A stretch of DNA of 64,000 nt, taken from an uncultured Candidatus Saccharibacteria bacterium. Lineage in GTDB: Bacteria > Patescibacteriota > Saccharimonadia > Saccharimonadales > AWTP1-31. The notes below the pieces were generated by a model. It saw nothing but the letters and a program-made list of their open reading frames with translations, was not told where the DNA came from and searched no databases. Positions within the stretch are counted from its first letter, which is position 1. Each line of letters begins with the position of its first letter. Below, piece by piece: positions 11,618 through 63,288 of this stretch. The position numbers and the translations under genes were made by a program. The stretch is taken from positions 3,898 through 67,897 of the forward strand of contig CALCZR010000003.1 in the NCBI GenBank assembly GCA_937903325.1. Reading direction: 5' to 3'.

Positions 11618-11694
11618 GCCCCTGTAGCTCAGTGGTAAGAGCGGCCTGGCTTATATCCGGTGCGTCGAAGTTTCAATTACTTCCAGGGGTACCA
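11618..11694 (+). tRNA. tRNA, most likely anticodon UAU (Ile, AUA), with a non-canonical anticodon arm register
   Basis: Acceptor GCCCCTG/CAGGGGT; D-arm GCTC-AGTGGTAA-GAGC; T-arm GAAGT-TTCAATT-ACTTC; encoded ACCA 3' end. The anticodon stem pairs only if two nt (GG) separate it from the D-stem, giving loop CTTATAT. Confidence 0.8.
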
Positions 11695-18623: not shown

Positions 18624-19012
18624 TGGAAATCGGCGACGTTGTTAATATTGGCTCTGGTTATAATGGTGAACTAAAAATTGGAGACACTTTTGTAATTAGT
18701 GCTATTGAGAATCCTTCACTTGGTCATTGCGAAATGCGGCTTACTAATCGTAAGCCTGAACCCGTTGTTCTTAGTGAAGGCAGCCGTTTTACTGATCCGA
18801 ATTACTTTCTGCGGATTCCAGAAGGAACAGTTATTGATCGTGATGGTATTCGGTGTTATCTTGGCGATTATAACGGTTATGATGCGCTGATCGCTGTCGT
18901 GTCGATCCAAGATACAAATAATGTCTGGTACGTATCTAACGAGCGTAAAGATAATGTGACCTATACTGTGAGGCTTCTACCGCCCGGTGTTGATGAGGTC
19001 AAGATTCCGTGA
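18623..19012 (+). CDS. hypothetical protein, possibly same modular family (129 aa)
   Basis: MEIGDVVNIGSGYNGELKIGDTFVI, RIPEGTVIDRDG. Confidence 0.55.
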   Translation: MEIGDVVNIGSGYNGELKIGDTFVISAIENPSLGHCEMRLTNRKPEPVVLSEGSRFTDPNYFLRIPEGTVIDRDGIRCYLGDYNGYDALIAVVSIQDTNNVWYVSNERKDNVTYTVRLLPPGVDEVKIP

Positions 19013-19695
19013 AGTACAAGAATTCTCGACACCAAGACATCTGCGTCTCAATTATCCTCGGATCTTTTCTGACAGCGCTCTCGTACGTCACTGCGGCATT
19101 ATTCCATTGGATTGATCACGTTGACTGGCTAGAAGCCTTTGCAGTGTTCACCAGTTACTCTTGCACATATCTTTGTGTCAAGCAGCGACGAGTGAACTAC
19201 ATCATTGGCGCTCTAAGCACCCTAGCGTTCTCTCTGCTGTTCTATCGGGCCGATCTGCTAGCAAGTGCCCTACTGAACCTTTATCTGACCCCACAGCTTC
19301 TCTACGGCTGGATCAGATGGAACCGTGATGAGATCACTAGGCCAGTAACAAATGTCACCTGGAAGTCAGTGCCAGCCTATCTTGTAGTTACTGGTCTGTT
19401 CTGGTTCGGTGCATATAATCTTGTGAAGCTCTTTGATGGTCAGATGGCCGGATGGGATACAGCTATTCTTATCGGCAGTATTCTTGCACAGTTTCTTCTA
19501 GATAACAAGAAGCTTCAGACATGGATCGTATGGGCAGTGGTGAACGTCATTGCTATCATTCTCTACGCTAAGAATGGTCTACAGATTACTGCTTTTCAGT
19601 ACGTCTTTTTTCTGCTATCAGCTACATGGGGTTACAGATCATGGAGTAGATCTACCAATGGCACACATCTTTCTGCTACGACATCAGGTTTCTGA
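19009..19695 (+). CDS. pnuC: nicotinamide riboside transporter PnuC
   Basis: Multi-TM protein whose YxxxxxGWxxW-type segment (LYLTPQLLYGWIRW) and overall hydrophobic pattern fit PnuC; sits directly upstream of a NadR homologue. Confidence 0.75.
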   Translation: MKYKNSRHQDICVSIILGSFLTALSYVTAALFHWIDHVDWLEAFAVFTSYSCTYLCVKQRRVNYIIGALSTLAFSLLFYRADLLASALLNLYLTPQLLYGWIRWNRDEITRPVTNVTWKSVPAYLVVTGLFWFGAYNLVKLFDGQMAGWDTAILIGSILAQFLLDNKKLQTWIVWAVVNVIAIILYAKNGLQITAFQYVFFLLSATWGYRSWSRSTNGTHLSATTSGF

Positions 19696-19825
19696 CTCAA
19701 AGAAAACACACTGTCCTCAAGGACATGAATATAATGAACAAAATACTTATATAGACAAAATCGGTCGCAGACATTGTAGACCATGTGCACTAATAAGATA
19801 TCATAAAAACAAAGGAAATAAATAA
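19658..19825 (+). CDS. small zinc-ribbon protein (CPxGHxY...CRxC motif)
   Basis: HCPQGHEYNEQNTYIDKIGRRHCRPCALIRY. Only in-frame start is ATG 19658, overlapping the pnuC 3' end. TAATG junction with nadR. Confidence 0.45.
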   Translation: MAHIFLLRHQVSDSKKTHCPQGHEYNEQNTYIDKIGRRHCRPCALIRYHKNKGNK

Positions 19826-21705
19826 TGTCGCTTACATGGGTGTTGATGACGTGCTTGCCGCCAACTAAAGGCCATGCTGATATTGTAAAGTTTGCTGAAT
19901 CACTCGGGAATACACATGTAAGAATTCTGCTGTGTACACAACCTGACGAACCAATGACCTCTGAGCGACGAAGGGCTGTAATGGATCTCACAGTGTCATC
20001 ATACTACACACAGATACTTTACTATGATAGCCCTATCCAACAGGTTCCTAAAGATGATAAGGATACTGCTTTTTGGCAAACGTGGAGACGTATTCTGCAA
20101 AATAAAGGTTTCCGTGAAGGCGATACTATTGTAGCTTCTGATTCATACGGCAAGAAACTTGCTGAAGTGATGAACGCCCAGTTTATGCCGTATGACCCTG
20201 ATCGTTCAATGCGACCAGGTTGTGCAACGGATGTAAGGAAAGATCCGCTCAAGAATTTCTCTTACATTCTACCATCATTTCAGGGCTTTCTTCGTAAGAA
20301 GATTACGATTTTCGGTGCAGAATCCTGCCTAGATGCAGACACTTTTATTAATTTTGAAAAGCGCACAAAGAAAGGTCGCCGTCAAAATTCTAAGGGTGGG
20401 TCCATCGAAACTCTTTGGTACAATTTTCATAACAAATTGCAACCAGGGTCGGGTAGATATCTCCGACCTCAAACACTTGAATCTGAGTACTTCGCACCCT
20501 GTATGAACGATGAGGGTCGCATCTTTATGAACCAGATTACCGATGTGGTCGACACTGGGTTGAAAAATTGTTTTACAGTGACTACATCGCTAGGATATGA
20601 AATTACGGGAACGGCAGATCATAAATTTCACTCGGCCGGACAGTATGTTTGTCTAAGTGATCTCGATGTTGGTGATGAAGTTTCCATCCACAATGGAACT
20701 CGCTACGAGTGTGATGGCAGAGCAGACAACAATAAGTATGATGGCAGACTAGAGATTACACTAGAACCTATTCATCCTAAGGCTGGCCTTAAAACTGTCA
20801 CTGAAAATGGCATCGAGTACCGATACTCTCGAATTCGTAGGAATAGAGCCGTATACGAAGCTCATATGAATGGGCTAACCTTAGAAGAATATAGAGCAAA
20901 ATTTAAAAATCATGATATTGCAGGAATGATTTTTCTGGATACAGAAGATCACATTCATCACCTAGATGAAAATCCCCTGAATGATGACATCAATAATCTA
21001 GAATTGATCTCTGCATCAGAACACGGTAGGCTCCATGCCCTAGAACGTCATAACAATTTACGGTTTACAGTGGTTACGGATAAAATTACAAAAATTCAAG
21101 CTGTAGGTGAGCGTCATACTTACGATATCAAAATGTTAACACCATATCATAACTATGTAGCTGACAAATTTGTTGTTCATAACTGCGGTAAAACCACTTT
21201 GGCAAATGCACTAGCTACCGCACTAGACGGCATTGCTATTCCAGAGTATGCTAGACCTTATCTCGAAATGGTTGGCTCGGATATCACTGTAGCCAAGATG
21301 AAAAGTATTCATCGAGGTCAGAAAGTTCTCCAGAAGCAAGCCACGGATCTAGCGCTGGACAAGCCTTTCATCTTTCAAGATACTGACCTGTTCAGTACTC
21401 TAGGTTACTGGCATCTCTGGAACGATGGCCCTGAAGATCTGAGCCTGATGTCTGACGCAAGGTCTAGTAAATCAGACCTCTACATCGTCTGTCCAAGTAA
21501 TATTCCTTTCGAACAAGATCCGCTGCGTTATGGTGGCAAGGTTCGTGAAAGTACAGATGACTATTGGATCAATCTGTGTAAGAATTTCGACCTTAACTAC
21601 AAGGTTTTGACAACGAAGTCCAAAAAGGGTAGACTAGAAGAAGCGACGAAACTCGCTGTTGATCTGTTTAATCCGAGTCAGCTAGCATATGAAAGAGTAA
21701 AATGA
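19825..21705 (+). CDS. nadR: NadR-like NMN adenylyltransferase / ribosylnicotinamide kinase, interrupted by an intein
   Basis: Collinear with E. coli NadR as recalled: PPTKGHADIV (HxGH-type), DVRKDPLKNFSYILP, ITIFGAES[286-aa insert]CGKTTLANAL (Walker A), FQDTDLFST. Confidence 0.8.
   Translation: MSLTWVLMTCLPPTKGHADIVKFAESLGNTHVRILLCTQPDEPMTSERRRAVMDLTVSSYYTQILYYDSPIQQVPKDDKDTAFWQTWRRILQNKGFREGDTIVASDSYGKKLAEVMNAQFMPYDPDRSMRPGCATDVRKDPLKNFSYILPSFQGFLRKKITIFGAESCLDADTFINFEKRTKKGRRQNSKGGSIETLWYNFHNKLQPGSGRYLRPQTLESEYFAPCMNDEGRIFMNQITDVVDTGLKNCFTVTTSLGYEITGTADHKFHSAGQYVCLSDLDVGDEVSIHNGTRYECDGRADNNKYDGRLEITLEPIHPKAGLKTVTENGIEYRYSRIRRNRAVYEAHMNGLTLEEYRAKFKNHDIAGMIFLDTEDHIHHLDENPLNDDINNLELISASEHGRLHALERHNNLRFTVVTDKITKIQAVGERHTYDIKMLTPYHNYVADKFVVHNCGKTTLANALATALDGIAIPEYARPYLEMVGSDITVAKMKSIHRGQKVLQKQATDLALDKPFIFQDTDLFSTLGYWHLWNDGPEDLSLMSDARSSKSDLYIVCPSNIPFEQDPLRYGGKVRESTDDYWINLCKNFDLNYKVLTTKSKKGRLEEATKLAVDLFNPSQLAYERVK
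20326..21183 (+). mobile_element. HNH-type intein (286 aa) inside the NadR P-loop
   Basis: Starts Cys (TGC 20326) CLDADTFINF. Block B GTADHKF. HNH core HIHHLDENPLNDDINNLELISASEHGRLH. Ends VVHN (AAC 21181-21183) followed by the +1 Cys of CGKTT. In frame, no stops. Confidence 0.85.
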
Positions 21706-22031
21706 GCTATTACGATAATGTCTATCATAGTCCAGAGAAATTTGGATTGACTTTGATTGATCAACTAGATCTTGCCGGAGGATATGAATACGATACAGTC
21801 CTAGTCTTTGAAAAGGAAGGTAAACTTTATTGGGCTCATGACTCAGGATGTTCCTGCCCTATTCCTTTCGAAGGTTATAGATCTATAGAAGATTTAGATA
21901 TTCTTGACTGGAAAGAGTTCGAGGCATTTGTAGATAATTGGTCAAACTGGGATAAAAGCTCTAGTGATGAAGCCGATAAGGCCGACTTGAAGCGAACCGT
22001 AATCAACAAGATGAAAGAACTAAACCTATGA
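21702..22031 (+). CDS. hypothetical protein (109 aa)
   Basis: ATGA overlap; HDSGCSCPIPFEGY motif. Confidence 0.6.
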   Translation: MSYYDNVYHSPEKFGLTLIDQLDLAGGYEYDTVLVFEKEGKLYWAHDSGCSCPIPFEGYRSIEDLDILDWKEFEAFVDNWSNWDKSSSDEADKADLKRTVINKMKELNL

Positions 22032-22219
22032 TTAGTGAGATTGAACTTATCCTCGATGAAATTGAGGCGCTTGGTCCTGATGACATTATCAGTGATAAGG
22101 CTGCAGGCTTTATTGTCTGGTACATGAACCAGCTGGGCGACCGGCCCAAGAATGACTATGAAACTCTGATGTACGATCACTGGGTGGATTACATGCTACA
22201 CCACGGCAGCACTGTCTAA
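22028..22219 (+). CDS. hypothetical protein (63 aa)
   Basis: ATGA overlap. Confidence 0.5.
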   Translation: MISEIELILDEIEALGPDDIISDKAAGFIVWYMNQLGDRPKNDYETLMYDHWVDYMLHHGSTV

Positions 22220-22244
22220 TTTAACAAAAGAAAAGGAAAATAAA

Positions 22245-22451
22245 ATGAAAGTTATTGGATTTATCATTGGAGTACTAGTAGCAGTTGCTCTTGGGGCAGC
22301 ATTCTGGGGATGGCTTGTTATGCTTGTCGCCGGTATTCTCTATAATGAGGGTATCACGGGTGCTCCGCTAGGGTTTTTCCCGGCATCTTTTGCAATTGGT
22401 TTTCTGCTCAGCATTCTTCTGGGCGGCAGTGCGAAGGCGAGTGCTAACTGA
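22245..22451 (+). CDS. small membrane protein (2 TM)
   Basis: AAAAGGAAAATAAA-ATG; VIGFIIGVLVAVALGAAFWGWLVMLVAGIL. Confidence 0.55.
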   Translation: MKVIGFIIGVLVAVALGAAFWGWLVMLVAGILYNEGITGAPLGFFPASFAIGFLLSILLGGSAKASAN

Positions 22452-23095
22452 TGCCAGCAGCAACTATTAAGCCATCAGATCTTAAGCCAGGTCATCCTGC
22501 CGTTACTAAGTCTGGTCGTTGGACCGCTCAGGCTAGGCGTGTCCTTAACCGACCGATTCTCCGCAGTCGTTACCGGACGGGTGATGATGAGTTCAGAAAG
22601 AACCCTATTCGAAATACTCCGCTTCTGAATCAGATTGCAGATTATCTTGAAGTTTTCCCTGAAGCTTGGAACCAAACTGTATGGGGCGCTCCGAAGGAAA
22701 AGACTCCTTGTGGAACGGCTTTCTGTATTGCCGGTACCGCAGTTCATGAGACAAACTGGAAGCCAACGTATTCTGATACCGCATGGTTTGATGAGATCAC
22801 AGATCGATGGATGCCTGGGGATAACTGGGAAGAAATTACCAGAGGTAATGACGCTGTTGTTCTCGTCAATGTAGCGGCAGCTATTGAACTTGGTCTGACC
22901 AAGGCTGAGTCAAACTATCTTTTTGATGCTGAGTGGCGTCCTAAGAAAGGCCAGTCTGTCTCAGAGGTTCTACGTCTTATCGGCCAAGGTGCTCAAATCG
23001 AAACTCTTGGTCTTGGGGATGGAGCCTACGCCGAAGATATCGAAATTGAATATGAAGATGGCCATAAGATTCGAGTATCAGGAGTGAAGCCATGA
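22451..23095 (+). CDS. family-B-related protein (214 aa)
   Basis: LLNQIADYLEVFPEAWNQTVW...PCGTAFCIAGTAVH: same motif order as 8158 and 8866, with an N-terminal basic extension. Confidence 0.6.
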   Translation: MPAATIKPSDLKPGHPAVTKSGRWTAQARRVLNRPILRSRYRTGDDEFRKNPIRNTPLLNQIADYLEVFPEAWNQTVWGAPKEKTPCGTAFCIAGTAVHETNWKPTYSDTAWFDEITDRWMPGDNWEEITRGNDAVVLVNVAAAIELGLTKAESNYLFDAEWRPKKGQSVSEVLRLIGQGAQIETLGLGDGAYAEDIEIEYEDGHKIRVSGVKP

Positions 23096-29549: not shown

Positions 29550-30863
29550 ATGTCGTATCAAGCAATCGTAGCAACACTAGAAAACGTCCAGCCACACCCT
29601 AACGCAGATCGACTTCAGATCGCCACTGTTCTGAACGGCTCTCACAATATTGTTGTAGGTCTAGAGAACAAGACGGGTGACGTAGGCGTGTATTTTGCCA
29701 CTGATGGCAAGCTGTCAGAAGAATACTGCATCCAGAATGAACTCTTTCCAATCTATGACCAGTCTGGTGCTAAGATTGGTGGCGGTATGTTCGACCCGAA
29801 GAACCGTCGAGTCCGAGCACAGAACCTCCGTTCAGTCAAGTCTGATGGCTACTTCGCATCGCTAGACAGCGTAGCATTTACAGGAGTAAATCTTGAGGAT
29901 CTGTATGTCGGTTTCCAGTTCGATACTTTACATGATGTTCTGATCTGCGAGAAGTACTACACTCCGCAAACCCTACGTGCGATGAAGGGTGGTACAGCAT
30001 CAACTAAGAAAGTTTGTGCGATGCTTCCAATGCATCAAGATACGAAGCAGTTTGCGTATGAAGCTGATGCTATCCCGGTTGGTTCTATCTGTACTACTAC
30101 TCTGAAGATTCATGGTACTTCTCATCGTCTAGCTAATGCGCTAGTTGATGTGGAGCATCCTCAGAAGTGGCGTCACAAGATCCTCCGTAAGACTCCACGT
30201 ATCACGCAAGAATGGAAGATTGTTCACGGTACACGTCGTGTGATCCTCGGTGAGCATGACGAGAGAATGTCTTTCTACGGTACAGACAAGTTCCGTTACG
30301 ATGCTACAGCTTTCCTAGAGCCTAACCTGAAAAAGGGTGAGGTTATCTACGGTGAGATTGTTGGTTATGTGAATGATACTACGCTTGTCATGGGCGAAGT
30401 ATCTACTAAGGATCTGAAGAAAGACCGAGAGTTCAAGAGTTTCTTCGGAGGTACTATCCCCGAGACAATGAAGTACACGTACAATTGTCTACCTGGACAG
30501 GCTGATTTCTATGTCTATCGTATTGCTATGGCAGACGAAGAAGGTAATCTTGTAGAGCTTTCTTGGCCTCAGGTTAAGAAGCGTTGCCGGGAACTTGGTG
30601 CGAAATTCTGCCCAGACTTTGGTCTACTTCCTTACACTGTTTCGAAGAAGGAAGGTATCCTTGAACTTGAAGAGATCGTAGAGAACTTCAACTATGGTGC
30701 TGATCCTATCGACCCGAGTCATATTCGTGAGGGTGTAGTTGTTCGTGTTGATCAGCCTGATGGTTCAGTACGTTTCTTGAAGAGCAAAAATTATTTCTTT
30801 AAAGTTTTAGAATCTATTATTAAAGCTAATGAAGAATACGTCGATGTTGAAGAGGTTGGCTGA
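29550..30863 (+). CDS. ATP-dependent RNA ligase with N-terminal OB/tRNA-binding-like domain
   Basis: N-terminus VQPHPNADRLQIATV (tRNA-binding OB-like). Nucleotidyltransferase motifs TLKIHGTS (KxxG), REGVVVRVD (EGxxxK/R), FLKSKNYFFK (KxK). Architecture like Rnl5-type (DraRnl-like) ligases. Confidence 0.75.
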   Translation: MSYQAIVATLENVQPHPNADRLQIATVLNGSHNIVVGLENKTGDVGVYFATDGKLSEEYCIQNELFPIYDQSGAKIGGGMFDPKNRRVRAQNLRSVKSDGYFASLDSVAFTGVNLEDLYVGFQFDTLHDVLICEKYYTPQTLRAMKGGTASTKKVCAMLPMHQDTKQFAYEADAIPVGSICTTTLKIHGTSHRLANALVDVEHPQKWRHKILRKTPRITQEWKIVHGTRRVILGEHDERMSFYGTDKFRYDATAFLEPNLKKGEVIYGEIVGYVNDTTLVMGEVSTKDLKKDREFKSFFGGTIPETMKYTYNCLPGQADFYVYRIAMADEEGNLVELSWPQVKKRCRELGAKFCPDFGLLPYTVSKKEGILELEEIVENFNYGADPIDPSHIREGVVVRVDQPDGSVRFLKSKNYFFKVLESIIKANEEYVDVEEVG

Positions 30864-31285
30864 TGAAAACAATTAAGATCAAAGATTGGGTTGCGGCCCT
30901 ACGTTCAGGAGATTACAGCCAGTGTGCGGGTGCCCTTTGTCGTGCTGATGACATTACTGCAACAGTATCGTATTGCTGTCTCGGTGTTGCCGCTAAGGCA
31001 GCGGACGCTCTAGATATTGGTCGTATCCATGTTGAAACAAAAGATGGTGTAACACGCACTATCAACCTAGACCTTGGCCTACCAGAAATTACCACTCCTG
31101 CCCGTACTCTTGAAGAGGCTGCGGTACGATGGGTCAATGATACTGGAGACGTCCGTGGCTCTCTTCAGAAAAGGCTTGTTCTTCTTAATGATGATGGCGC
31201 AAGCTTTAGTGACATTGCTGACGAGATCGAGAAGTATTGTGATCCCGAAGCCGAGATTCAGTTCCTAGAGAAATCAGATTTCTAA
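30863..31285 (+). CDS. family-A paralogue
   Basis: IKDWVAALRSGDYSQCAGAL...YCCLGVAA; TGATG and TAATG junctions with the ligase and kinase genes. Confidence 0.65.
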   Translation: MKTIKIKDWVAALRSGDYSQCAGALCRADDITATVSYCCLGVAAKAADALDIGRIHVETKDGVTRTINLDLGLPEITTPARTLEEAAVRWVNDTGDVRGSLQKRLVLLNDDGASFSDIADEIEKYCDPEAEIQFLEKSDF

Positions 31286-31893
31286 TGCTATACATTCCAG
31301 TTGGTCCGCCAGCTTGCGGAAAATCCACGCTAGCTGATCAGATGGTGGCGTCAGGTATTCTGGATGCAGATGCGATTGTTAGTTCCGATAGACTAAGAGT
31401 TCTTCTTACCGGCGATGTTAATTGTCAGACAGCTAACGGCGAAGTGTTCAGTATCGCTCACAAGATTGCTGCAACAAGACTCAAGTACAATCAGGATGTT
31501 TACCTTGATGCTACTAATCTGGTAGCCAAAGATATCAAAAAGATTCTTGATCTTGCACCTAACCTTGATGATGTAGAGATTATCATCTCAGATACTTCTC
31601 ATGAACTTTGTACTGAGCGTAACAATCGTCGCTCAAGAACTGTGCCACAGGAAGCTATGCAAAAGTTTTACAATCGTCAGAACAACTTTGATCTGATCAG
31701 CCTACTTGCAGAGTATCCTGTTGGTACGATTCTTCTATCAGCCAAGCTTGCAGAGGTCAAGGATACAGTATTTCCTCAGATCTTTCCCCCCGATGAGCCT
31801 GTAGAACCTCGTGAGACGCCCGTGAAGGCCCCTCGCATCCTCAATTCGTTCGTTCCGGCATGGTTACCGCTGGAACCACCGTTCGACGCTTAG
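31285..31893 (+). CDS. P-loop polynucleotide-kinase-like protein (AAA_33 / T4 Pnk kinase-domain-like)
   Basis: MLYIPVGPPACGKSTLA Walker A at the extreme N-terminus, DATN, RNNRRSR lid-like segment; Pro-rich tail. Confidence 0.6.
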   Translation: MLYIPVGPPACGKSTLADQMVASGILDADAIVSSDRLRVLLTGDVNCQTANGEVFSIAHKIAATRLKYNQDVYLDATNLVAKDIKKILDLAPNLDDVEIIISDTSHELCTERNNRRSRTVPQEAMQKFYNRQNNFDLISLLAEYPVGTILLSAKLAEVKDTVFPQIFPPDEPVEPRETPVKAPRILNSFVPAWLPLEPPFDA

Positions 31894-34015: not shown

Positions 34016-35515
34016 GTGACGTTCTTACTACTTGACAAAGAATATGAAATTTATCCTAAAGAACTTGTAGGTGGTAAGGCGTCCAATCTTCACCAGATGA
34101 TCCACGATGGCTTGCCTGTGCCGCAAGCGTTTGTCATCAGTGTAGACGAATGTTTCAAACTCGATTTCACCAGTGAACTCCACGAACATAACTCAGAGTT
34201 TGGATTGAGACTGAGTAGTCACATTCGTTACCTATCAATGATGACAGGCAAGCAGTGGAACAGTGACTATAATCCCCTACTTGTCTCTGTAAGATCAGGT
34301 GCCCCCATCTCCATGCCAGGTATGATGGAGACAGTACTGAACATTGGTCTGACCAGAAATAATCTTGATGCTTTCGTAGAAGCTCGTGGTGCTGACAGAG
34401 CCTTCGGGTTAGACTGTTACCGTAGACTGATCCAGATGTATGGTGTGACAGTTCATGGTATCCCAGCCGAAGCGTTCAGTAGTGTATATAATTCTGCAAG
34501 GATTTTCTACGAGGAACTGGACGAGAAAGCAAACGAAAACCTTGTCCGTCTTTACGAAGGTATTTTCTTTCAGCACGTCGGTATCGTCTTCCCTGATGAT
34601 CCTAACGAACAACTTCTACAAGCATGTAACGCAGTGTTCCGGTCTTGGCACAGCGAGAAAGCCAAGACTTATCGTGACCTAGAAGGTATTCCTCATGATA
34701 TGGGTACCGCTGTCACTGTGCAAGAAATGGTCTTTGGTAACCTTGACCGTCAGTCAGCTACAGGCGTTGTGTTCACTCATGATCCTAATACTGGTAAGCT
34801 CGGATGGTATGGCGACTTTCTTGTCGGGGCTCAAGGCGAAGATGTTGTTGCCGGTACACATAAGGTTCTCCATATCCAAGAGATTCTACAGGACGAGAAC
34901 TTGCGTAAGGCCGGTAAGGATCTACAGGTTACAATCGGTGGACTCTTCCACCGCTACAAGAGTATTCTTGATGTGGAGTTTACTATCGAATCAGGTAAGC
35001 TTTACATCTTGCAGTACCGTCAAGCTAAATGTTCACGTCAGGCAACCATTCGTTCTCTGATGGATATGGCACGACAAGGCGATATCAGTGTGCTAGATGG
35101 CACCAGTAAGATGATGGAACTGCTGCCGCCTATTGACCGTGGTACTCAAGACCCTGGTAACTTGACGCTACTCGGTAAAGGTCTAGGTGCCACTGAAGGT
35201 ATTGTTGTAGGTCAGATTGCGATTGGTCGTGATACTGCACGGGAATACCAAGAGCAAGGTATCAGTTATATCTATGTAGCCCATGAGACTGCACCAGACG
35301 ACGTTGAACAAATGAAGGGTGCCGTAGGTATCCTGACAGCCTCAGGTGGTCTGGTATCTCATGCTGCGCTTATTGCTAGAGGCTGGAACAAGACCTGTGT
35401 TCTAGGATTTGACCGGATCAAAGTACTCGAAGATCATTTCACATTCAATGGTGAGATGTATAAGAATGGGTCTTTGATGAAAATTAATGGCTCCACGGGA
35501 GAAATATTCGCATGA
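34016..35515 (+). CDS. PPDK/PEP-synthase-like dikinase fragment: ATP-grasp plus phospho-His swivel domain, no PEP/pyruvate-binding domain
   Basis: GGKASNL; VSVRSGAPISMPGMMETVLNIGL; AVTVQEMVFGN..ATGVVFTHDPNTG..GAQGEDVVAGT; LDVEFTIESGKLYILQYRQAK; GILTASGGLVSHAALIARGWNKTCVLG (His449 = CAT 35360-35362). Ends 50 aa after the His. Confidence 0.85.
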   Translation: MTFLLLDKEYEIYPKELVGGKASNLHQMIHDGLPVPQAFVISVDECFKLDFTSELHEHNSEFGLRLSSHIRYLSMMTGKQWNSDYNPLLVSVRSGAPISMPGMMETVLNIGLTRNNLDAFVEARGADRAFGLDCYRRLIQMYGVTVHGIPAEAFSSVYNSARIFYEELDEKANENLVRLYEGIFFQHVGIVFPDDPNEQLLQACNAVFRSWHSEKAKTYRDLEGIPHDMGTAVTVQEMVFGNLDRQSATGVVFTHDPNTGKLGWYGDFLVGAQGEDVVAGTHKVLHIQEILQDENLRKAGKDLQVTIGGLFHRYKSILDVEFTIESGKLYILQYRQAKCSRQATIRSLMDMARQGDISVLDGTSKMMELLPPIDRGTQDPGNLTLLGKGLGATEGIVVGQIAIGRDTAREYQEQGISYIYVAHETAPDDVEQMKGAVGILTASGGLVSHAALIARGWNKTCVLGFDRIKVLEDHFTFNGEMYKNGSLMKINGSTGEIFA

Positions 35516-48464: not shown

Positions 48465-49429
48465 AGAAACTAGGCGTCGTCGTAGGACGATTTCAGACAG
48501 AAATTCTGACCGCCACACACGTCGATTTAATCGATACTTCGCTCAGAGAAAATGATCATACGCTTATTGTGGTTGGAGTTGGACCGTTACCAACAACGGC
48601 TCGTAACCCACTCTCTTTCAACATGAGAGCAGCTATGATCGCTGATCATCTAACAGATACCGGGCATAGCACAGACACGCAAGTTAACATCATTGAACAG
48701 TTAGCGGATCATCCTGACGACAGGATCTGGTCAAATAGCCTAGACACTCTTATTTATGGCGCTGCAATGCAGCTAACCAATGAAGAAGTAGAAGTCACTC
48801 TGTACCACGGGCGGGATTCGTTCCGAGAAGTATATAGTGGGAACTACCCTAACTTTCATGAAATTGATGAGCATCCTCTAGACTCTGCGACCAGACGACG
48901 GGAAAATATTGGCAGGTACGATTGGCCCTATGTTCCTAAACGTTTTCGAGAAGGTGTTATCTGGGCTAACCAGAATCGTTTCCCTACGGTCTACTCTTGT
49001 GTAGATGCGGCTGTAGTATGGAACGAGTACTCAGATAAGATGAGACTGACTAACAAATACCTACTTCTTATCACGAAAGATATTGCAGAAGGTTACATGT
49101 TCCCTGGTGGATTCGCCGAGCTTAACTCAACAGATGAGGATGATGCCCGCCGTGAAGTCATGGAAGAAACCGGCATCGACATGTCTTTCGTTCACGCAGA
49201 ATGGCTCGGATCATTTACACAGGATGATTGGCGTTACCGTTCAGAAGTAGATGAAATTCGTACTCGTCTATTCTTATTTGAACCATATGGCCCACTGAGT
49301 GAACGACCTAAAGCGGTAGGTGCTGACGATGCAGCTACGGCACAGTGGGTTAACATTAAAGATCTGAAAGTTGAAGACTTTAACAAGTGCCACCGGGCAC
49401 TATTTGAAAGGCTATTAGAAGAACTATGA
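48461..49429 (+). CDS. bifunctional NMN adenylyltransferase / Nudix hydrolase (NadM-Nudix / NatV-like)
   Basis: N-terminus VVVGRFQTEILTATHVDLI (nucleotidyltransferase GRFxP.H.GH-like, degenerate). C-terminal Nudix box GGFAELNSTDEDDARREVMEETGI (GX5EX7REUXEEXGU). Confidence 0.75.
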   Translation: MKKLGVVVGRFQTEILTATHVDLIDTSLRENDHTLIVVGVGPLPTTARNPLSFNMRAAMIADHLTDTGHSTDTQVNIIEQLADHPDDRIWSNSLDTLIYGAAMQLTNEEVEVTLYHGRDSFREVYSGNYPNFHEIDEHPLDSATRRRENIGRYDWPYVPKRFREGVIWANQNRFPTVYSCVDAAVVWNEYSDKMRLTNKYLLLITKDIAEGYMFPGGFAELNSTDEDDARREVMEETGIDMSFVHAEWLGSFTQDDWRYRSEVDEIRTRLFLFEPYGPLSERPKAVGADDAATAQWVNIKDLKVEDFNKCHRALFERLLEEL

Positions 49430-50784
49430 ATCAAGAACTAATTGACCAGCTAAATCATAACATTATACTCAGTGTCGATTCATACAAGCTTTCACACTGG
49501 AAAATGCAACAGAAGGACCTTGAGAACATGGTCCTCTACTGGGAGATGCGTAAAGGTGCGAAGTATGAAGAGGCTGTTTTCTTTGGACTACAAGCTATCC
49601 TACTGAAGCATTTCACCGGGTGCCGTGTTGACGCTAACAAGATCCGTGAAGCCAAGCAATTCATTAACCCTCACATGGGACCCGGTGTCTTTAATGAGGA
49701 AGGTTGGACCTATATCTCAGAAAAGCTTGGTGGTCGTCTACCCGTACGTATTCAGGCTGTACCTGAAGGTTCTGTAAACCCGATCAACAGCGTTCTTTTT
49801 CACGTACAAGTTACGGATGAAAATTGTGCATGGCTAGCAGAGCCACTAGAAACAATCTTGTCTCACGTCTGGTACACTTCGACAGTAGCTACACTTTCTC
49901 GTGAAGTGAAGAAAGACTACTCGAAGTACATGAATGAGACGCTCGGTGGAGTTACTGGGATTGATTTCATGCTCCACGATTTCGGTGGGCGTGGCGTTAC
50001 CTGCTTTGAACAGATGGGTATAGGTGGTATGGCCCACCTTGTAAACTTCCAAGGTACCGATACTGTGCCTGGTCTGAAGGCTGCGTACGATTACTACGAT
50101 GCCGACCTGTCTACTCTCGGTTTTTCTGTGCCTGCTTCTGAGCACGCAGTCATGACTTCTCTTGGTGCTGACGGCGAGCTTGCAATCATTGAGCAGATCC
50201 TTGATGAGTTCCCTACAGGAATTGTCAGTGTTGTTGGTGATTCCTATGACATTGTGAACTTTGTTAAGAACATTGTTGGCACTCAGCTTCACGACCGCAT
50301 CATGAGCCGTGATGGCAAATTTGTTGTGCGACCTGATTCACCTACAGAAGAGTGGCCGATGGCTGCTGACCAGATGGTTTGGATCTACCAGACTCTATGG
50401 TATGCGTTCGGTGGTACTGAGTCACCTACTGGCTTTAAGATCCTTGATGACCATGTTGGTGTCCTCTGGGGTGATGGTATCGACCGTGGTGGTGTGCATC
50501 ATATCCTTATGGCGCTGAAGAACGCTGGCTTTGCTACGACGAACGTGTCTGGCATGGGCGGCGGTCTACTTCAGAAAGTAAACCGTGACACTCAGCGTTG
50601 TGTTATCAAGTGCTCCGCTCAGAAGCGGTCAGGTGTCTGGCACGATGTTCACAAGGAAACTTTCGGCAAAGTCTCTAAGGCTGGTCGGTTCCTTGAGCTT
50701 GACTTGCCTGTAGTCTTTGAGAACGGTGAACTTGTCCGCCGTTATACATTTGATGAGGTTCGAGAGAACGCTAAACTGCTATGA
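49426..50784 (+). CDS. nadV: nicotinamide phosphoribosyltransferase (NAMPT/NadV)
   Basis: NIILSVDSYKLSHW N-terminal signature, about 450 aa, ATGA-coupled to the NMNAT gene. Confidence 0.85.
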   Translation: MNQELIDQLNHNIILSVDSYKLSHWKMQQKDLENMVLYWEMRKGAKYEEAVFFGLQAILLKHFTGCRVDANKIREAKQFINPHMGPGVFNEEGWTYISEKLGGRLPVRIQAVPEGSVNPINSVLFHVQVTDENCAWLAEPLETILSHVWYTSTVATLSREVKKDYSKYMNETLGGVTGIDFMLHDFGGRGVTCFEQMGIGGMAHLVNFQGTDTVPGLKAAYDYYDADLSTLGFSVPASEHAVMTSLGADGELAIIEQILDEFPTGIVSVVGDSYDIVNFVKNIVGTQLHDRIMSRDGKFVVRPDSPTEEWPMAADQMVWIYQTLWYAFGGTESPTGFKILDDHVGVLWGDGIDRGGVHHILMALKNAGFATTNVSGMGGGLLQKVNRDTQRCVIKCSAQKRSGVWHDVHKETFGKVSKAGRFLELDLPVVFENGELVRRYTFDEVRENAKLL

Positions 50785-51342: not shown

Positions 51343-51486
51343 ATGAGTAAAGTATTTCAATTGCATTTAGATATCGATGCGACCCTGGCTGTTGAAGAGA
51401 TTTGGCCTGACGGTGAGCTAGAGGAAAAGAAGCAAAGAGTTCTAGATCTAGCTGAAGAACTAGGCATCGAGATTGATTTCCTATGA
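51343..51486 (+). CDS. hypothetical small acidic protein (47 aa, below track cutoff)
   Basis: AAGGATGACT-ATG 51343; stop forms ATGA with the ligase start. Confidence 0.45.
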   Translation: MSKVFQLHLDIDATLAVEEIWPDGELEEKKQRVLDLAEELGIEIDFL

Positions 51487-52607
51487 CAGAATTTCTACCG
51501 ATCCTTTACAAGAAAACCTCCACCGGCGCTACGCAGGTATGGCAGCGTGAAATCGATGGTGATAGATACCGTTCAATCTCTGGTCAGATCGATGGAGTAA
51601 AGCACCCCTCTGGTTGGACAACGGCCACACCTAAGAATGAAGGCAAAGCGAACGCTACCACAGCTGAAGAACAGGCCCGTCTAGAGTGTGAGTCGGCTTA
51701 CAAGATTAAGCTAGCCCAAGGTGGATACCACGAGTCGGTTGATGATATCGATACCACCAAGTTCTTTAAGCCTATGCTTGCGAAAGCTTATGACGAGCGA
51801 CCAATCAAGGACGATGAGTGGGGCGAGATCTATAGCCAACCTAAGCTCGACGGTGTGCGTTGCATCGCTACCTCAGAGGGATTGTTCTCTCGTCAAGGTA
51901 AGCCAATTGATTCGTGCCCTCATATTATTGAGGCTCTTGAAGATTACTTTCATATTCGCCCCGACTCTATTCTTGATGGAGAACTTTATGCTGACCATCT
52001 CAGCGATAACTTCAACGAGATTATTTCACTGGTGCGTAAACAAAAGCCAACAGCAGATCATTTCGCTAAGACAGCAAAAGCCATCAAATACCATGTATAC
52101 GATATCCCCTCCGAAGAATTTGGGTTTCGTGGCCGCTACATGCGTCTCATCGGTACCGAAGGTCTTTGGCCTGTAGATGGACCAGTTGTTCTAGTTGAAA
52201 CAACCGGTGTCGAAAATAGCGATCATCTGGATGCTTTGAACGCTGAGTATATCGAAGATGGTTACGAAGGTCAGATGGTTCGACGTGACGGTCCCTATAA
52301 AAACGGACGTAGCTTTGACCTCCTGAAGCGCAAAGAGTTCCTCGACCAAGAGTTCACTGTAATCTCAGTAGACGAAGGCATTGGTAACCGTGCTGGTATG
52401 GCTGGGTTTATCACCTATGAGCTTGGTGATGGTCGCACTTTCAAGTCAGGTATCAAAGGTAACTGGCAGTATGCTACTCAGCTTCTTAAGGACGCTGATA
52501 TTTATGTCGGTGGACAGGGCACAGTGCGGTACTTTCAGTTGACCCCTGAAGGCAAGCCACGCTTTCCTGTAACAGTAGCCTTGTATGAAGGTAAAAGGGA
52601 CATCTAA
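51483..52607 (+). CDS. ATP-dependent DNA ligase
   Basis: SQPKLDGVRC (motif I KxDG), YHVYDI (III), EGQMVRR (IV), DLLKRKEF (V); C-terminal OB-like region. Confidence 0.85.
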   Translation: MTEFLPILYKKTSTGATQVWQREIDGDRYRSISGQIDGVKHPSGWTTATPKNEGKANATTAEEQARLECESAYKIKLAQGGYHESVDDIDTTKFFKPMLAKAYDERPIKDDEWGEIYSQPKLDGVRCIATSEGLFSRQGKPIDSCPHIIEALEDYFHIRPDSILDGELYADHLSDNFNEIISLVRKQKPTADHFAKTAKAIKYHVYDIPSEEFGFRGRYMRLIGTEGLWPVDGPVVLVETTGVENSDHLDALNAEYIEDGYEGQMVRRDGPYKNGRSFDLLKRKEFLDQEFTVISVDEGIGNRAGMAGFITYELGDGRTFKSGIKGNWQYATQLLKDADIYVGGQGTVRYFQLTPEGKPRFPVTVALYEGKRDI

Positions 52608-54295: not shown

Positions 54296-55300
54296 TCAAG
54301 TAGATGAAGAAATATCCTTGATGATCGCCTCAGCGTAGCCATTCATCATGGCTACGTCGATACGGAACCGATCGCAGACACCCGCACGACCCTGAGCCAG
54401 AGACTCGCCCGTAGTAGCGTCAGCAAACCAGGAACCAGACTGTTTGATCAGACCTCGTTCAAGACTCTGATCTAGAATGAAAGCCTCGTTGCTAATACCG
54501 TATTCGTAGTGAATCTCAAACTCGCCAGTCTTGAAAGGCGGGGCAAACTTGTTCTTCAGGATCTTGAACTTGACTTCCTGGCCATAGATGTCATCGCCAC
54601 GAGTCAAGTTACCTTTACGGTTGACTTCAATTCTCGTACTGGCATAATAGGCGAGAGCTTCGCCACCAGTAGGAATGTTAGGGTTCTGATTACCCATCGT
54701 CTGCATACGCTTACGATACTGATTGACGAACGCAATAATTACTTGCGAATCTACCTCGATCATCTTGTTGTTCAGTTTACGCAGACCCTGACTCATCAGT
54801 TTAGCCTGGACACCCATGATACTATCACCGAAATCACCGTTGATCTCAGCAAGCGGAGTCATAGCCGCAACCGAGTCAAGAACAATACAACTGACATCAT
54901 CTGCTTCTAGACAGTTTTCAATCAGTTCTAGAGTCTTCTCAGAAGAACCAGGCTGAGCAATGAACAGACGGTCTGTATCGATCCCGGCACGCTCAAACTT
55001 GCCACGATCAACCGAGTTCTCTAGATCGATATAGACACACTCGCCTTCCTTCTGAGCTTGTGCTGTCAGATAAGTTGCGATAGCGCTCTTACCGCCACCA
55101 GCAGGACCGATAAACTCTGCAATAGTTCCTTTAGGAATACCACCACCAAGTTCGATATCAAGAGCCATAACTCCTGTCGGGATACGATCAACATCTTCTG
55201 GCATCTCATTCATAGTTTTCATGGTGCCAGCATGTTGCTTGTTGATTTCTTCTTGAATACTACTTAGACTTGTTTTTGTTTTTGCCTTGGCCTTCGCCAT
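54296..55300 (-). CDS. recA: RecA recombinase
   Basis: ALDIELGGGIPKGTIAEFIGPAGGGKSAIA (Walker A), CIVLDSVAAM (Walker B), QAKLMSQGLRKL, FVNQYRKRM: collinear with RecA. Confidence 0.85.
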   Translation of the reverse strand: MAKAKAKTKTSLSSIQEEINKQHAGTMKTMNEMPEDVDRIPTGVMALDIELGGGIPKGTIAEFIGPAGGGKSAIATYLTAQAQKEGECVYIDLENSVDRGKFERAGIDTDRLFIAQPGSSEKTLELIENCLEADDVSCIVLDSVAAMTPLAEINGDFGDSIMGVQAKLMSQGLRKLNNKMIEVDSQVIIAFVNQYRKRMQTMGNQNPNIPTGGEALAYYASTRIEVNRKGNLTRGDDIYGQEVKFKILKNKFAPPFKTGEFEIHYEYGISNEAFILDQSLERGLIKQSGSWFADATTGESLAQGRAGVCDRFRIDVAMMNGYAEAIIKDISSST

Positions 55301-61500: not shown

Positions 61501-63288
61501 TCATTGTCCAGCCTTCTTTTCGTCGCTGTGACGCTCGTCACGCCACACGTATCGTATCTTACCTGCATCATAAATGCGAGTCAGGCCATTTAATTCGGCC
61601 AATTCAGTCTCTGTCATTGTAGCGTCATATATCAAAGATGTGTCATGTGCAAATTTTTCTTTTCTATAGTTAAATTTATGTACTCTTTTTTTACAAGCCT
61701 TATCTAAATAACTATAGTCTGGATCAAGAATTTTATTTAGACTAAATCCGTTAGTTTCATATAAACTACCATTAGAGATGGTCAGGTCCGCAAATGATTT
61801 AATATCTCCTTTGCGATAATTTTTGAAATGACTTAAAATTTTACTAAATCCACCTGGAACACGGACAGAGGTGGCAAATCTAACTAGATCCCATCTCACA
61901 TCCGCCATTGTACCTTGATCTTTGAATGAAGCTAGGGCTACTAATTCGTTATTATACATGAGACCGATATGATGAGTTGCAGGAGAAAATCCTTGAATAT
62001 GATTTTGTTCATAAAATAATTTAGCATCTATTGGTTTAACTTTCATATTTACATCTGTCTTACGAGCATAGATAGATTTAATATTACTTAGATTTAACTT
62101 AGTCAAGATAGATAATTTAACAATATCTTTTTTATAATTCCAATCATCTTCCCAAATTTGAATAAGTTGAACGCCTTGATTCTTACATGCCAAATATTTA
62201 TCGTAATGATAATTTTTAGATTTAAATTTCTCAGAGTGCCAGTAGAGACCATTAAATTCAATTGCAATATTTTTTGATGGAATATAAATATCTAATTCTA
62301 GGGGTGCAATTAAGGTGCGATTGGAACGTTCAATCGGGATGTGAGATTCTATAAAATCAGCTAGATCAGATTCTAAAAGAGAATAACTATTAATTTTTTC
62401 TGTAATCATAGCTTCTTCTAATGACATACCTCGATATAATCTATGTCTAACTGTGTTTTCGTGACCTATAAATCTTGGATCTTTAATCCATTCAGACCAT
62501 TTTTTACTCTCGCCAAAAGCATCATATAAAATATCTTCTATAATATCTGTAGTAATAGCTTTTTCTGATTCCCAATTTAATTTATAAATACGATCTTTAA
62601 GAATATATTTATCTTTGTAGGGACAACGTGCATCTAAGACCCAGTCACTGATCGATTTGAATTCCCCGAATGCTTGTAATCTATTTGGGGTTGTAGAAAT
62701 TTGGGAGATAGCGTCTTCAAGTGTCCATCCTAAGCTAAGTCTAGATCTGAGAAGATCACAATTACCGTGCACACATCGACTATCTTTAGCCCAGTCATAT
62801 AAGATTTTTGTCTCATTAAAAGCTTTATATTTTTTAATATTTTGACGAGGTTCTAAAATGGCTGATTCCGCGTCCCACCCCTGATTAATTCTAGATACAA
62901 TTAATTTTCTATCTTTATGAATACATCTAGAATCTTGTGCCCATTCAACTGGAACTTTAGACTCACCAAATGCAGATATGGGATATTTAATAATATCCTT
63001 TGTAAGAGCTATCTCAAAATCCCAATTCCATTTTACTCGATCCCTAAGAGTGGTAGCTGATTTATGAACACAGCGTTCATCTTTCGTCCACTCCGTTATA
63101 GTCTTCGATTCGCCGAATGCATCGTACTTACGAGAGCCTACAACAGGTTCGTTCATCGCTCGTTCAGGGTCCCAAGCTTTATGTAATCTTCTTTGCAAGG
63201 TTTTGAATGGGACAAGGCAGCGATTGTCCTCCGACCATTCTTTGATAGTTTTCGATTCACCATACGCAATAAATAACTTGGGCACCAT
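61501..63288 (-). CDS. free-standing homing-endonuclease-like protein: six tandem DNA-binding-type repeats plus PD-(D/E)xK (Vsr/DUF559-like) nuclease plus unknown C-terminal domain
   Basis: Six about 49-aa repeats [AFGE(S)KTxxEWxxDxRCxxxxxxLxxRxxxGWxxExA]. Then LELDIYIPSKNIAIEFNGLYWHSEKF (D...ExxG.YWH). Markedly AT-rich (27 % GC in line 62161-62220 against 57 % in 61381-61440, hand counts). Confidence 0.7.
   Translation of the reverse strand: MVPKLFIAYGESKTIKEWSEDNRCLVPFKTLQRRLHKAWDPERAMNEPVVGSRKYDAFGESKTITEWTKDERCVHKSATTLRDRVKWNWDFEIALTKDIIKYPISAFGESKVPVEWAQDSRCIHKDRKLIVSRINQGWDAESAILEPRQNIKKYKAFNETKILYDWAKDSRCVHGNCDLLRSRLSLGWTLEDAISQISTTPNRLQAFGEFKSISDWVLDARCPYKDKYILKDRIYKLNWESEKAITTDIIEDILYDAFGESKKWSEWIKDPRFIGHENTVRHRLYRGMSLEEAMITEKINSYSLLESDLADFIESHIPIERSNRTLIAPLELDIYIPSKNIAIEFNGLYWHSEKFKSKNYHYDKYLACKNQGVQLIQIWEDDWNYKKDIVKLSILTKLNLSNIKSIYARKTDVNMKVKPIDAKLFYEQNHIQGFSPATHHIGLMYNNELVALASFKDQGTMADVRWDLVRFATSVRVPGGFSKILSHFKNYRKGDIKSFADLTISNGSLYETNGFSLNKILDPDYSYLDKACKKRVHKFNYRKEKFAHDTSLIYDATMTETELAELNGLTRIYDAGKIRYVWRDERHSDEKKAGQ
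62398..63267 (-). repeat. six tandem coding repeats (period 49-51 codons)
   Basis: The A(F/Y)GE motif recurs at aa 8, 57, 106, 156, 206 and 257 of the 595-aa ORF. Confidence 0.75.

Follow-up and report, generated by a model that had tools for sequence, protein, structure and literature searches.

A phage gene for a NadR-like enzyme of nicotinamide adenine dinucleotide (NAD) salvage has, with a probability of roughly 0.85, been invaded by a mobile, self-splicing class-1 intein with a nested HNH endonuclease, and this intein most likely came from a phage RecA. The gene lies in a stretch of 64,000 nt of contig CALCZR010000003.1, referred to below as the window, whose source is an uncultured large lytic phage with genes for rIIA/rIIB, a DnaE-type polymerase, RecA, PnuC, NadR and NAMPT. 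The open reading frame (ORF) at 19825..21705 (+) encodes 626 amino acids, a NadR-like nicotinamide mononucleotide (NMN) adenylyltransferase/ribosylnicotinamide kinase, and it is interrupted in frame by 286 amino acids (858 nt) between Ser167 and the Cys of the kinase Walker A motif, GAES^CGKTT (here and below, the caret marks the insertion point). In the proposed course of events, the precursor with its Walker A split between Ser167 and Cys+1 would undergo an N-S acyl shift at Cys1, trans-thioesterification to Cys+1, cyclisation of Asn286 aided by His285 and an S-N shift, which would leave a NadR with an intact GAESCGKTT and a free intein. At the level of DNA, the HNH domain would cut intein-free nadR genes at the sequence encoding the Walker A, and repair from an intein-bearing copy would spread the element (homing). 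The nadR gene itself would have been reached by an extein switch from phage RecA, whose Walker A, GPES^SGKTT, encodes a near-identical target. By calculation the precursor has a mass of 71.6 kDa, and splicing would turn it into a NadR of 38.7 kDa and an intein of 32.9 kDa, in agreement with the spliced product of about 39 kDa and the intein of about 33 kDa expected from an earlier reading of the same DNA (the original prediction).

The insert starts with TGC at 20326-20328 (Cys1) and ends with AAC at 21181-21183 (Asn286), the next codon being TGC at 21184-21186 (Cys+1), and the junctions read KKITIFGAES^CLDADTFINF ... ADKFVVHN^CGKTTLANAL. The original prediction, which had placed a 286-residue insert in frame inside the P-loop of NadR, proved exact to the base in both coordinates and junctions. 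It also held that removal of the insert restores GAESCGKTT, and indeed the sequence excised in silico is aligned by HMMER to the Walker A motifs of solved NadR structures, GTESSGKTT in 9x6f and GGESSGKST in 8x7f. The intein hallmarks it had listed (Cys1, TADH, HN and Cys+1) and the HNH string were all located where it had put them. The parts of the gene are as follows:

19825..20325 (+): N-extein of nadR, amino acids 1-167, with the NMN adenylyltransferase (NMNAT) domain and the first half of the kinase Walker A (G-A-E-S)
20326..21183 (+): predicted class-1 intein with nested HNH homing endonuclease, 286 amino acids, from Pfam, phmmer, AlphaFold2 (AF2) and Foldseek
20326..20328 (+): codon of Cys1, the block A nucleophile, which is Cys in 180 of 180 family members
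20611..20622 (+): block B, T96-A-D-H99 (TxxH), with H99 invariant and T96 conserved in at least 90% (alignment A1)
20950..21036 (+): HNH motif H209..H237 (H211, H212, N224, H233, H237), a predicted beta-beta-alpha element with the sequence HIHHLDENPLNDDINNLELISASEHGRLH
21109..21183 (+): C-terminal splicing region, blocks F and G, with D267 invariant, ending in H285-N286 and aligning to the C-terminus of NpuDnaB
21184..21705 (+): C-extein of nadR, amino acids 454-626 plus stop, with Cys+1, GKTT and then the rest of the ribosylnicotinamide kinase domain (AAA_28)

That the insert is a class-1 intein is supported by every feature that can be read from a sequence. A comparison with intein profiles, which the original prediction had proposed, gave a match to Pfam Intein_splicing (PF14890) that is not due to chance, because its 43.6 bits exceed the gathering cut-off of 35.8. 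NCBIfam returns intein-type matches only (intein-bearing models of RtcB, DnaB and ribonucleotide reductase, as well as intein_Nterm and intein_Cterm), and phmmer against the PDB finds the NpuDnaB and Ssp DnaB mini-inteins, with block B TGTADHKF resembling ATGNHKF and the C-terminus ...FVVHN resembling ...IIVHN. An AF2 model of the intein, built on an alignment of 34 relatives, has a mean predicted local distance difference test score (pLDDT) of 90.7, and its best PDB matches in Foldseek are all inteins, among them NpuDnaB 4o1r and the Mtu RecA intein 3igd (target-normalised TM-score 0.86, E ~4e-9). The BFVD matches are of the generic intein fold, at no more than 20% identity and in other host proteins. 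Conservation of residues was taken from alignments of 34 and 180 intein relatives: C1, H99, D267, H285 and N286 are invariant in them, with the terminal dipeptide HN in 178 of the 180 members; at +1, 131 relatives have Ser and 49 have Cys. Class-3 inteins, as Tori and Perler reportedly described them in 2011, are marked by a Trp-Cys-Thr triplet (Trp in block B, Cys in block F, Thr in block G) and usually lack a Cys1 or Ser1 nucleophile. This class could be ruled out, as Cys1 together with an Asp in block F excludes the pattern: Cys1 is invariant, the block F residue is Asp267 and not Cys, and the terminal residues are VVHN.

The putative nuclease follows block B and precedes block F, which is where nested endonucleases usually sit. 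In the AF2 model the predicted HNH element spans residues 208-244, with strands at 208-212 and 225-229 and a helix at 230-244; H211, H212, N224, H233 and H237 are invariant in the family alignment, and 21 of the 34 family members match Pfam HNH_3 at E<=1e-3. Separately, a further mini-domain is conserved at intein residues 14-53 (20365-20484), with the pattern N..KGG[ST]I..L..F and a short helix predicted at 27-34; it lies outside the coverage of the Pfam splicing model and may be an added DNA-recognition element.

The host protein aligns, once spliced in silico, end to end with solved NadR structures (HMMER: 9x6f, 8x7f and 1lw7), and NadR proteins are its best sequence matches among solved structures. 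An AF2 model of the precursor was used for the exteins only, its intein part being of low confidence with three intein rows in the alignment; the exteins reach pLDDT values of 84-96 and the top eight Foldseek matches are NadR structures. In the N-extein PPTKGH represents the TxGH motif and the TIGR01526 match covers amino acids 6-168, while the C-extein scores 59 bits with Pfam AAA_28 (cut-off 27). I regard the protein as NadR-like, like those of other phages, and not as an orthologue of the trifunctional NadR, because the equivalog scores are far under their cut-offs (TIGR01526, 77 bits against 341; PRK08099, 36 against 201) and the NMNAT domain stands at the very start, the N-terminal helix-turn-helix (HTH) repressor domain of enterobacterial NadR being absent.

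Homologues of NadR that are uninterrupted at the site comprise 81 metagenomic sequences and genes of Microbacterium, Sinorhizobium and Agrobacterium phages, and the proteins of these isolated phages match the precursor as two abutting pieces. None of these homologues carries another domain at the site; a non-intein domain there was what the original prediction had named as speaking against an intein. The metagenomic homologues read GAES[T/V/C/I/A]GK[ST]T; at the first variable position 70 of them have T, 6 have V and 3 have C. Intein-free nadR alleles in relatives, which it had proposed to look for, do exist, and the closest, P0005 at the syntenic locus L005, has a native GAESCGKTT. A second candidate for such an allele, P0007 from an ENA metagenome (481 amino acids, 98% identical over the C-extein), was discarded since it fuses the N-terminus of an adenylosuccinate lyase to the NadR C-extein directly behind the Walker A, most likely as the product of a chimeric assembly whose joint lies at or near the intein junction. 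The last 66 codons of nadR (21514-21705) are 93% identical in nucleotides between the window and the related locus L001, against 60-73% for the other extein parts, so that the 3' end of the gene, judged by its sequence, is a mosaic recombination boundary inside the gene that is unrelated to the intein junctions.

The intein also appears to have moved recently. Among three independent assemblies (the window, L010 and L011) 0 of 858 intein nucleotides differ, and the exteins of the latter two differ from the window at 46 and 69 of 1020 nt, many of these differences being synonymous. Under a uniform spread of differences, an intein without any has P ~6e-13 and 5e-19, respectively, and in L011 the differences begin 3 nt 3' of the intein. 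At the protein level, the inteins of twelve alleles are 100% identical and their exteins 90-100%, one allele (P0268) being identical to that of the window. In the more distant comparison of the window with L001, whose exteins are 72% identical, the intein has 85% nucleotide identity, a synonymous divergence (dS) of 0.87 and a ratio of non-synonymous to synonymous divergence (dN/dS) of 0.06, which falls to 0.03 over the segment with the HNH motif and the C-terminal splicing region. The abutting extein segments are only 60-67% identical with saturated synonymous sites, and the change is abrupt at both junctions. The C-extein is itself under purifying selection, with a dN/dS of 0.12 between the window and L001 and 17 synonymous differences to 1 non-synonymous between the window and L010. 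Purifying selection, which acts on both exteins and on the intein, is the only indirect evidence of splicing. Since purifying selection cannot erase synonymous differences, these comparisons taken together indicate a recent sweep of the intein across diverged nadR alleles, as expected from homing.

In a search space of 5.8 billion proteins, intein-bearing NadR forms two clusters only, P0001 (98% identical) and P0002 (80%). All other strong matches to the intein are RecA proteins interrupted at GPES^SGKTT, with 57-61% identity over the whole intein, and the RecA intein loci that were examined look phage-like. Cut at E<=1e-3, an exhaustive search with the intein alone returned 2,233 cluster representatives, of which 236 remain at E<=1e-30. 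Among 180 intein-bearing proteins whose hosts were examined, 140 are RecA, 2 are NadR and 38 are other P-loop proteins; Pfam on 8 of these 38 assigned four to AAA/AAA_5, two to AAA_24, one to the CHC2 zinc-ribbon (primase-type) and one to no family. At least 22 unrelated extein families, separable by BLAST, share the same sub-site of the Walker A, which is exactly G-x-x-x^x-G-K-[ST] in 152 of 180 members and a near variant in the remaining ones. By neighbour-joining, the NadR inteins form a monophyletic group in 100/100 bootstraps, and this group is nested in a RecA-only clade, again in 100/100; the 25 nearest inteins are all in RecA. A switch of exteins from phage RecA to NadR is thus the most likely origin, as indicated by the nesting of the NadR inteins inside the RecA clade. 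One protein with an intein at a NadR-like position, residue 166 (P0130), is in fact a RecA whose N-terminus carries a long extension.

The target sequences suggest why nadR was hit. Over the central 36 nt, sites in nadR and recA match at 24-28 positions, which equals the likeness among recA sites (26-30) or among nadR sites (27). On a position matrix made from the flanks of 140 RecA inteins, the spliced nadR scores 42.4 bits and the other Walker A sites of the window 23.9, 17.9 and 5.4 bits. The score of 17.9 belongs to the phage's own recA:

54296..55300 (-): phage recA, intein-free, with the Walker A GPAG^GGKS, from tblastn and translation; Pfam RecA, E 1e-68

Its target region matches the other sites at 18-21 of 36 nt only. 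RecA genes are the usual hosts of this intein lineage. In this phage the Walker A of RecA is unusual, GPAGGGKS instead of GPESSGKT, and has Gly at +1, without a Ser, Cys or Thr nucleophile, so that the gene looks non-permissive for the intein. This Gly could reflect an evolved immunity to the intein, or it could be a coincidence. The second-best match of the window to the matrix (23.9 bits) is the Walker A at ~31303 of a small P-loop protein (31285-31893, +), PPA^CGKS, which has Cys at the position equivalent to +1 and is intein-free.

Several observations weigh against a mobile, splicing intein of RecA descent. I infer both splicing and DNA cleavage from sequence. The nuclease scores 24.5 bits with Pfam HNH_3, 0.3 below the gathering cut-off of 24.8. 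Among the homologues no intein-free allele closer than ~60% identity was found, which leaves the lineage without a documented empty site, and nadR in this lineage may be fixed for the intein. The direction from RecA to NadR is read from abundance (140 hosts against 2 clusters) and from nesting, in a neighbour-joining tree of ~280 columns in which the sister relation of P0003 has the support of only 61/100 bootstraps. Finally, phages that infect the same cell could also come to share identical inteins by gene conversion or recombination in which no endonuclease acts, which I consider the weaker alternative. An intein that still splices and is no longer mobile, with an inactive HNH domain and inherited vertically or by ordinary recombination, would agree with the marginal HNH_3 score, with the lack of an empty-site allele in close relatives, as expected of a fixed intein, and with the phage mosaicism seen in nadR itself, where the last 66 codons remain so similar between diverged alleles. 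Even so I hold it to be unlikely: all metal-binding and catalytic residues of the HNH domain are invariant, dN/dS is as low as 0.03 over the segment that holds its motif and the C-terminal splicing region, and 0 of 858 differences, sharp junctions and diverged flanks fit homing better than random recombination.

The transfer from RecA might also have run in reverse or not have taken place at all, the intein having originated in NadR or another P-loop gene and moved into RecA later, or having come to NadR from a third host. The 25 nearest inteins in RecA, the RecA-only clade around the NadR inteins with 100/100 bootstraps, and 2 NadR clusters as opposed to 140 RecA representatives make this improbable, even though at least 22 extein families offer alternative donors and P0003 is placed with 61% support. 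Still less probable is that the insert does not splice, and is either a retained domain or a disabling insertion that leaves a dead kinase half behind a working N-terminal adenylyltransferase. Such a protein is conceivable insofar as the NMNAT domain lies wholly within the N-extein and the phage also encodes NAMPT, so that its route from NMN to NAD does not strictly depend on the kinase. However, a P-loop with 286 residues between its halves could not bind ATP, the C-extein is under purifying selection (dN/dS 0.12; 17 synonymous to 1 non-synonymous), and all splicing residues are invariant in 180 relatives. An element at the RNA level, that is a group I or II intron with an HNH ORF, or else an assembly chimera, can hardly be credited: the frame is continuous across both junctions, the insert has the HINT fold, and 28 sequences belonging to two clusters, found on dozens of contigs of independent samples, repeat the architecture, one of them being identical to the window. 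What speaks for it is that HNH genes of phages are often borne by introns, and that the database protein P0007 is a chimera involving nadR. In Rfam, no family of intron type was found at E<=1; there was only a sub-threshold match to an adenosylcobalamin (AdoCbl) family on the opposite strand, which I take to be chance.

If the insert is indeed a mobile, splicing intein, its position invites a further speculation, namely that conditional splicing acts as a post-translational switch on NAD salvage of the phage. I consider this doubtful; the idea comes by analogy from the conditional splicing of P-loop inteins in DnaB and RadA (PMC6195587, PMC4513877). The scissile bonds, which lie inside the ATP-binding loop, are flanked by Cys1 and Cys+1, and the intein has four further Cys. 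Were the idea true, the kinase half of NadR could stay inactive, held back by redox state or metal ions, as long as conditions in the infected cell do not change, and the N-terminal adenylyltransferase could already work in the precursor.

Inteins in P-loops, inteins with HNH nucleases and extein switching are already known, while NadR as a host was not found in the literature searched. There, NadR or NMNAT occurs with inteins in incidental co-mentions only, and it is absent from two large intein surveys and from the actinophage survey of 2025. The original prediction had called NadR an unusual host, which holds for the protein; the P-loop itself, however, is a typical location for inteins. 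The nearest relatives are the HNH inteins in the Walker A of RecA (P0003, P0006 and P0008; loci L006-L009), which share 57-61% identity over the full 286 amino acids, the HINT domain, the 40-residue N-terminal insert, the nested HNH, Cys1 and HN, the sub-site G-x-x-x^[S/C]-G-K-[T/S] and 24-28 of 36 nt of flanking DNA. They differ in residing in a recombinase and not in a NAD-salvage kinase, and in that their +1 residue is mostly Ser, whereas that of NadR is Cys. A description of this RecA-centred family was not found in the literature searched.

The DnaB-b intein of M. smegmatis (DnaBi1), the P. horikoshii RadA intein and the mycobacteriophage TerL1-a intein likewise interrupt the Walker A of a P-loop NTPase, and in DnaB, RadA and TerL ATP binding must await splicing (PMC5050341, PMC6195587, PMC4760082). 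These classic P-loop inteins, however, lie after the invariant Lys (GK^S/T), with the Mg-binding Ser/Thr as +1 residue, and the NadR site lies two residues upstream (S^CGK) (PMC5050341, PMC6195587). In addition, DnaBi1 is a class-3 mini-intein, and an HNH nuclease is not reported in the cited descriptions of the classic P-loop inteins, with which I compared by description only. The Mtu RecA intein and the Npu and Ssp DnaB mini-inteins (3igd, 4o1r, 1mi8) share the HINT fold, with target-normalised TM-scores of 0.82-0.86, and align in blocks B, F and G, but are only ~11-13% identical, use other insertion sites and have no HNH domain. The in-frame HNH inteins of actinobacteriophages have the same rare non-LAGLIDADG architecture, and the recently proposed switch of exteins from terminase to Cas4 is likewise a move to a non-homologous gene with a similar target in a nucleotide-binding motif, the usual host gene not being a viable site (bioRxiv 10.1101/2025.01.02.630785). 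That switch nevertheless involved class-3 inteins, and the hosts in that study are DNA polymerase, minor capsid protein, terminase and thymidylate synthase, with NadR and RecA unmentioned (bioRxiv 10.1101/2025.01.02.630785). As for the host protein, NadR of H. influenzae (1lw7), of the E. coli type (8x7f) and of L. lactis (6gye), and NadR-like proteins of Microbacterium phage Cece and others, have the same fold of NMNAT and ribosylnicotinamide kinase. The known NadR and phage NadR-like genes share the Walker A G-x-E-S-x-G-K-[ST]-T and the pairing with pnuC. The window protein differs from known NadR by the missing N-terminal HTH, by its 77 bits against an equivalog cut-off of 341 and by its intein.

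NadR, a coenzyme-salvage kinase missing from the published host lists that were searched, would be a new category of host; those lists are dominated by proteins of replication, recombination, repair and nucleotide metabolism. It has long been asked how inteins colonise non-homologous genes; documented cases are very few, and the NadR case offers an identifiable donor (the RecA Walker A inteins), an explicit shared target (~25 of 36 nt, GxES^xGKTT) and a fresh homing sweep, which would make it a tractable model of how inteins reach new genes. The wider HNH intein family with its 2,233 representatives is apparently large and undescribed, and its common site suggests a lineage of homing endonucleases tuned to the Walker A, the most widespread motif in biology. 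Such a specialist bears on why inteins concentrate in ATPases, and the family may provide protein engineering with compact Cys1/HN inteins tolerant of varied exteins.

The composition of the insert sets it apart less than had been supposed. The original prediction put it, from sampled lines of 60 nt, at 35% G+C (GC) against 47% in its flanks; the insert is indeed lower, but the contrast is small, with 39.9% in the intein, 43.5% in the N-extein, 44.3% in the C-extein and 44.6% in the whole window. Ranked among all 858-nt stretches, the intein stands at the 2.3rd percentile, or about 1.9 standard deviations below the mean. A GC of 35% is reached only in its 3' third (20900-21199), which holds the HNH and C-terminal splicing parts, while the 5' half has the GC of the flanks, and with the AT-rich part so confined I rejected a strong compositional foreignness of the intein.

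Directly 5' of nadR lies its partner gene:

19009..19695 (+): pnuC, nicotinamide riboside/NMN transporter (Pfam NMN_transporter, E 4e-38)

This operon-like pair is kept in all related loci (synteny in L001-L005, L010 and L011). The spacer between the two genes (19700-19824) is ~165 nt longer in the window than in L001 and L005, and the extra part encodes only a Cys-rich tail (THCPQGHEY...GRRHCRPC) that matches the C-terminus of a complete, free-standing HNH-like gene of 156 amino acids at the same spot in L010 (2534-3004; BLASTP E 5e-10). By this match, the spacer seems to hold what decay has left of a second gene for a homing endonuclease, beside the intein-bearing gene. With a NAMPT gene at 49426-50784, the NAD salvage set of the phage is complete, comprising PnuC (19009-19695), the NadR-like NMNAT/ribosylnicotinamide kinase (19825-21705) and NAMPT; genes for a DNA ligase (51483-52607) and for an RNA ligase (29550-30863) lie nearby.

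The phage has no close counterpart in the collections searched. Megablast of 19000-22500 against 50,697 GenBank phage records gave zero matches, no close relative of the whole precursor was found in the same records, and a scan of IMG/VR with the full protein also gave zero matches. The DnaE polymerase is at most 40% identical to versions from isolated phages, with actinophages among the best matches. A scan of GTDB genomes found mainly distant inteins at other sites (ThyX, DnaE), and its host assignment is unreliable beyond two short binned contigs, one in a Sphingobacteriaceae and one in a Ca. Planktophila metagenome-assembled genome.

Elsewhere in the window, a 595-amino-acid ORF (61501-63288, -) that is probably a further mobile endonuclease gene matches the PHROG families 'homing endonuclease/HNH endonuclease' and sits in the stretch of lowest GC (29.7% around 61986). 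The ORF at 34016-35515 (+) has PPDK_N and phosphoenolpyruvate-utilising mobile domains (PHROG 'kinase') and is an unusual auxiliary metabolic gene. A single tRNA gene, tRNA-Ile with the anticodon TAT, is located at 11618-11694 (+).

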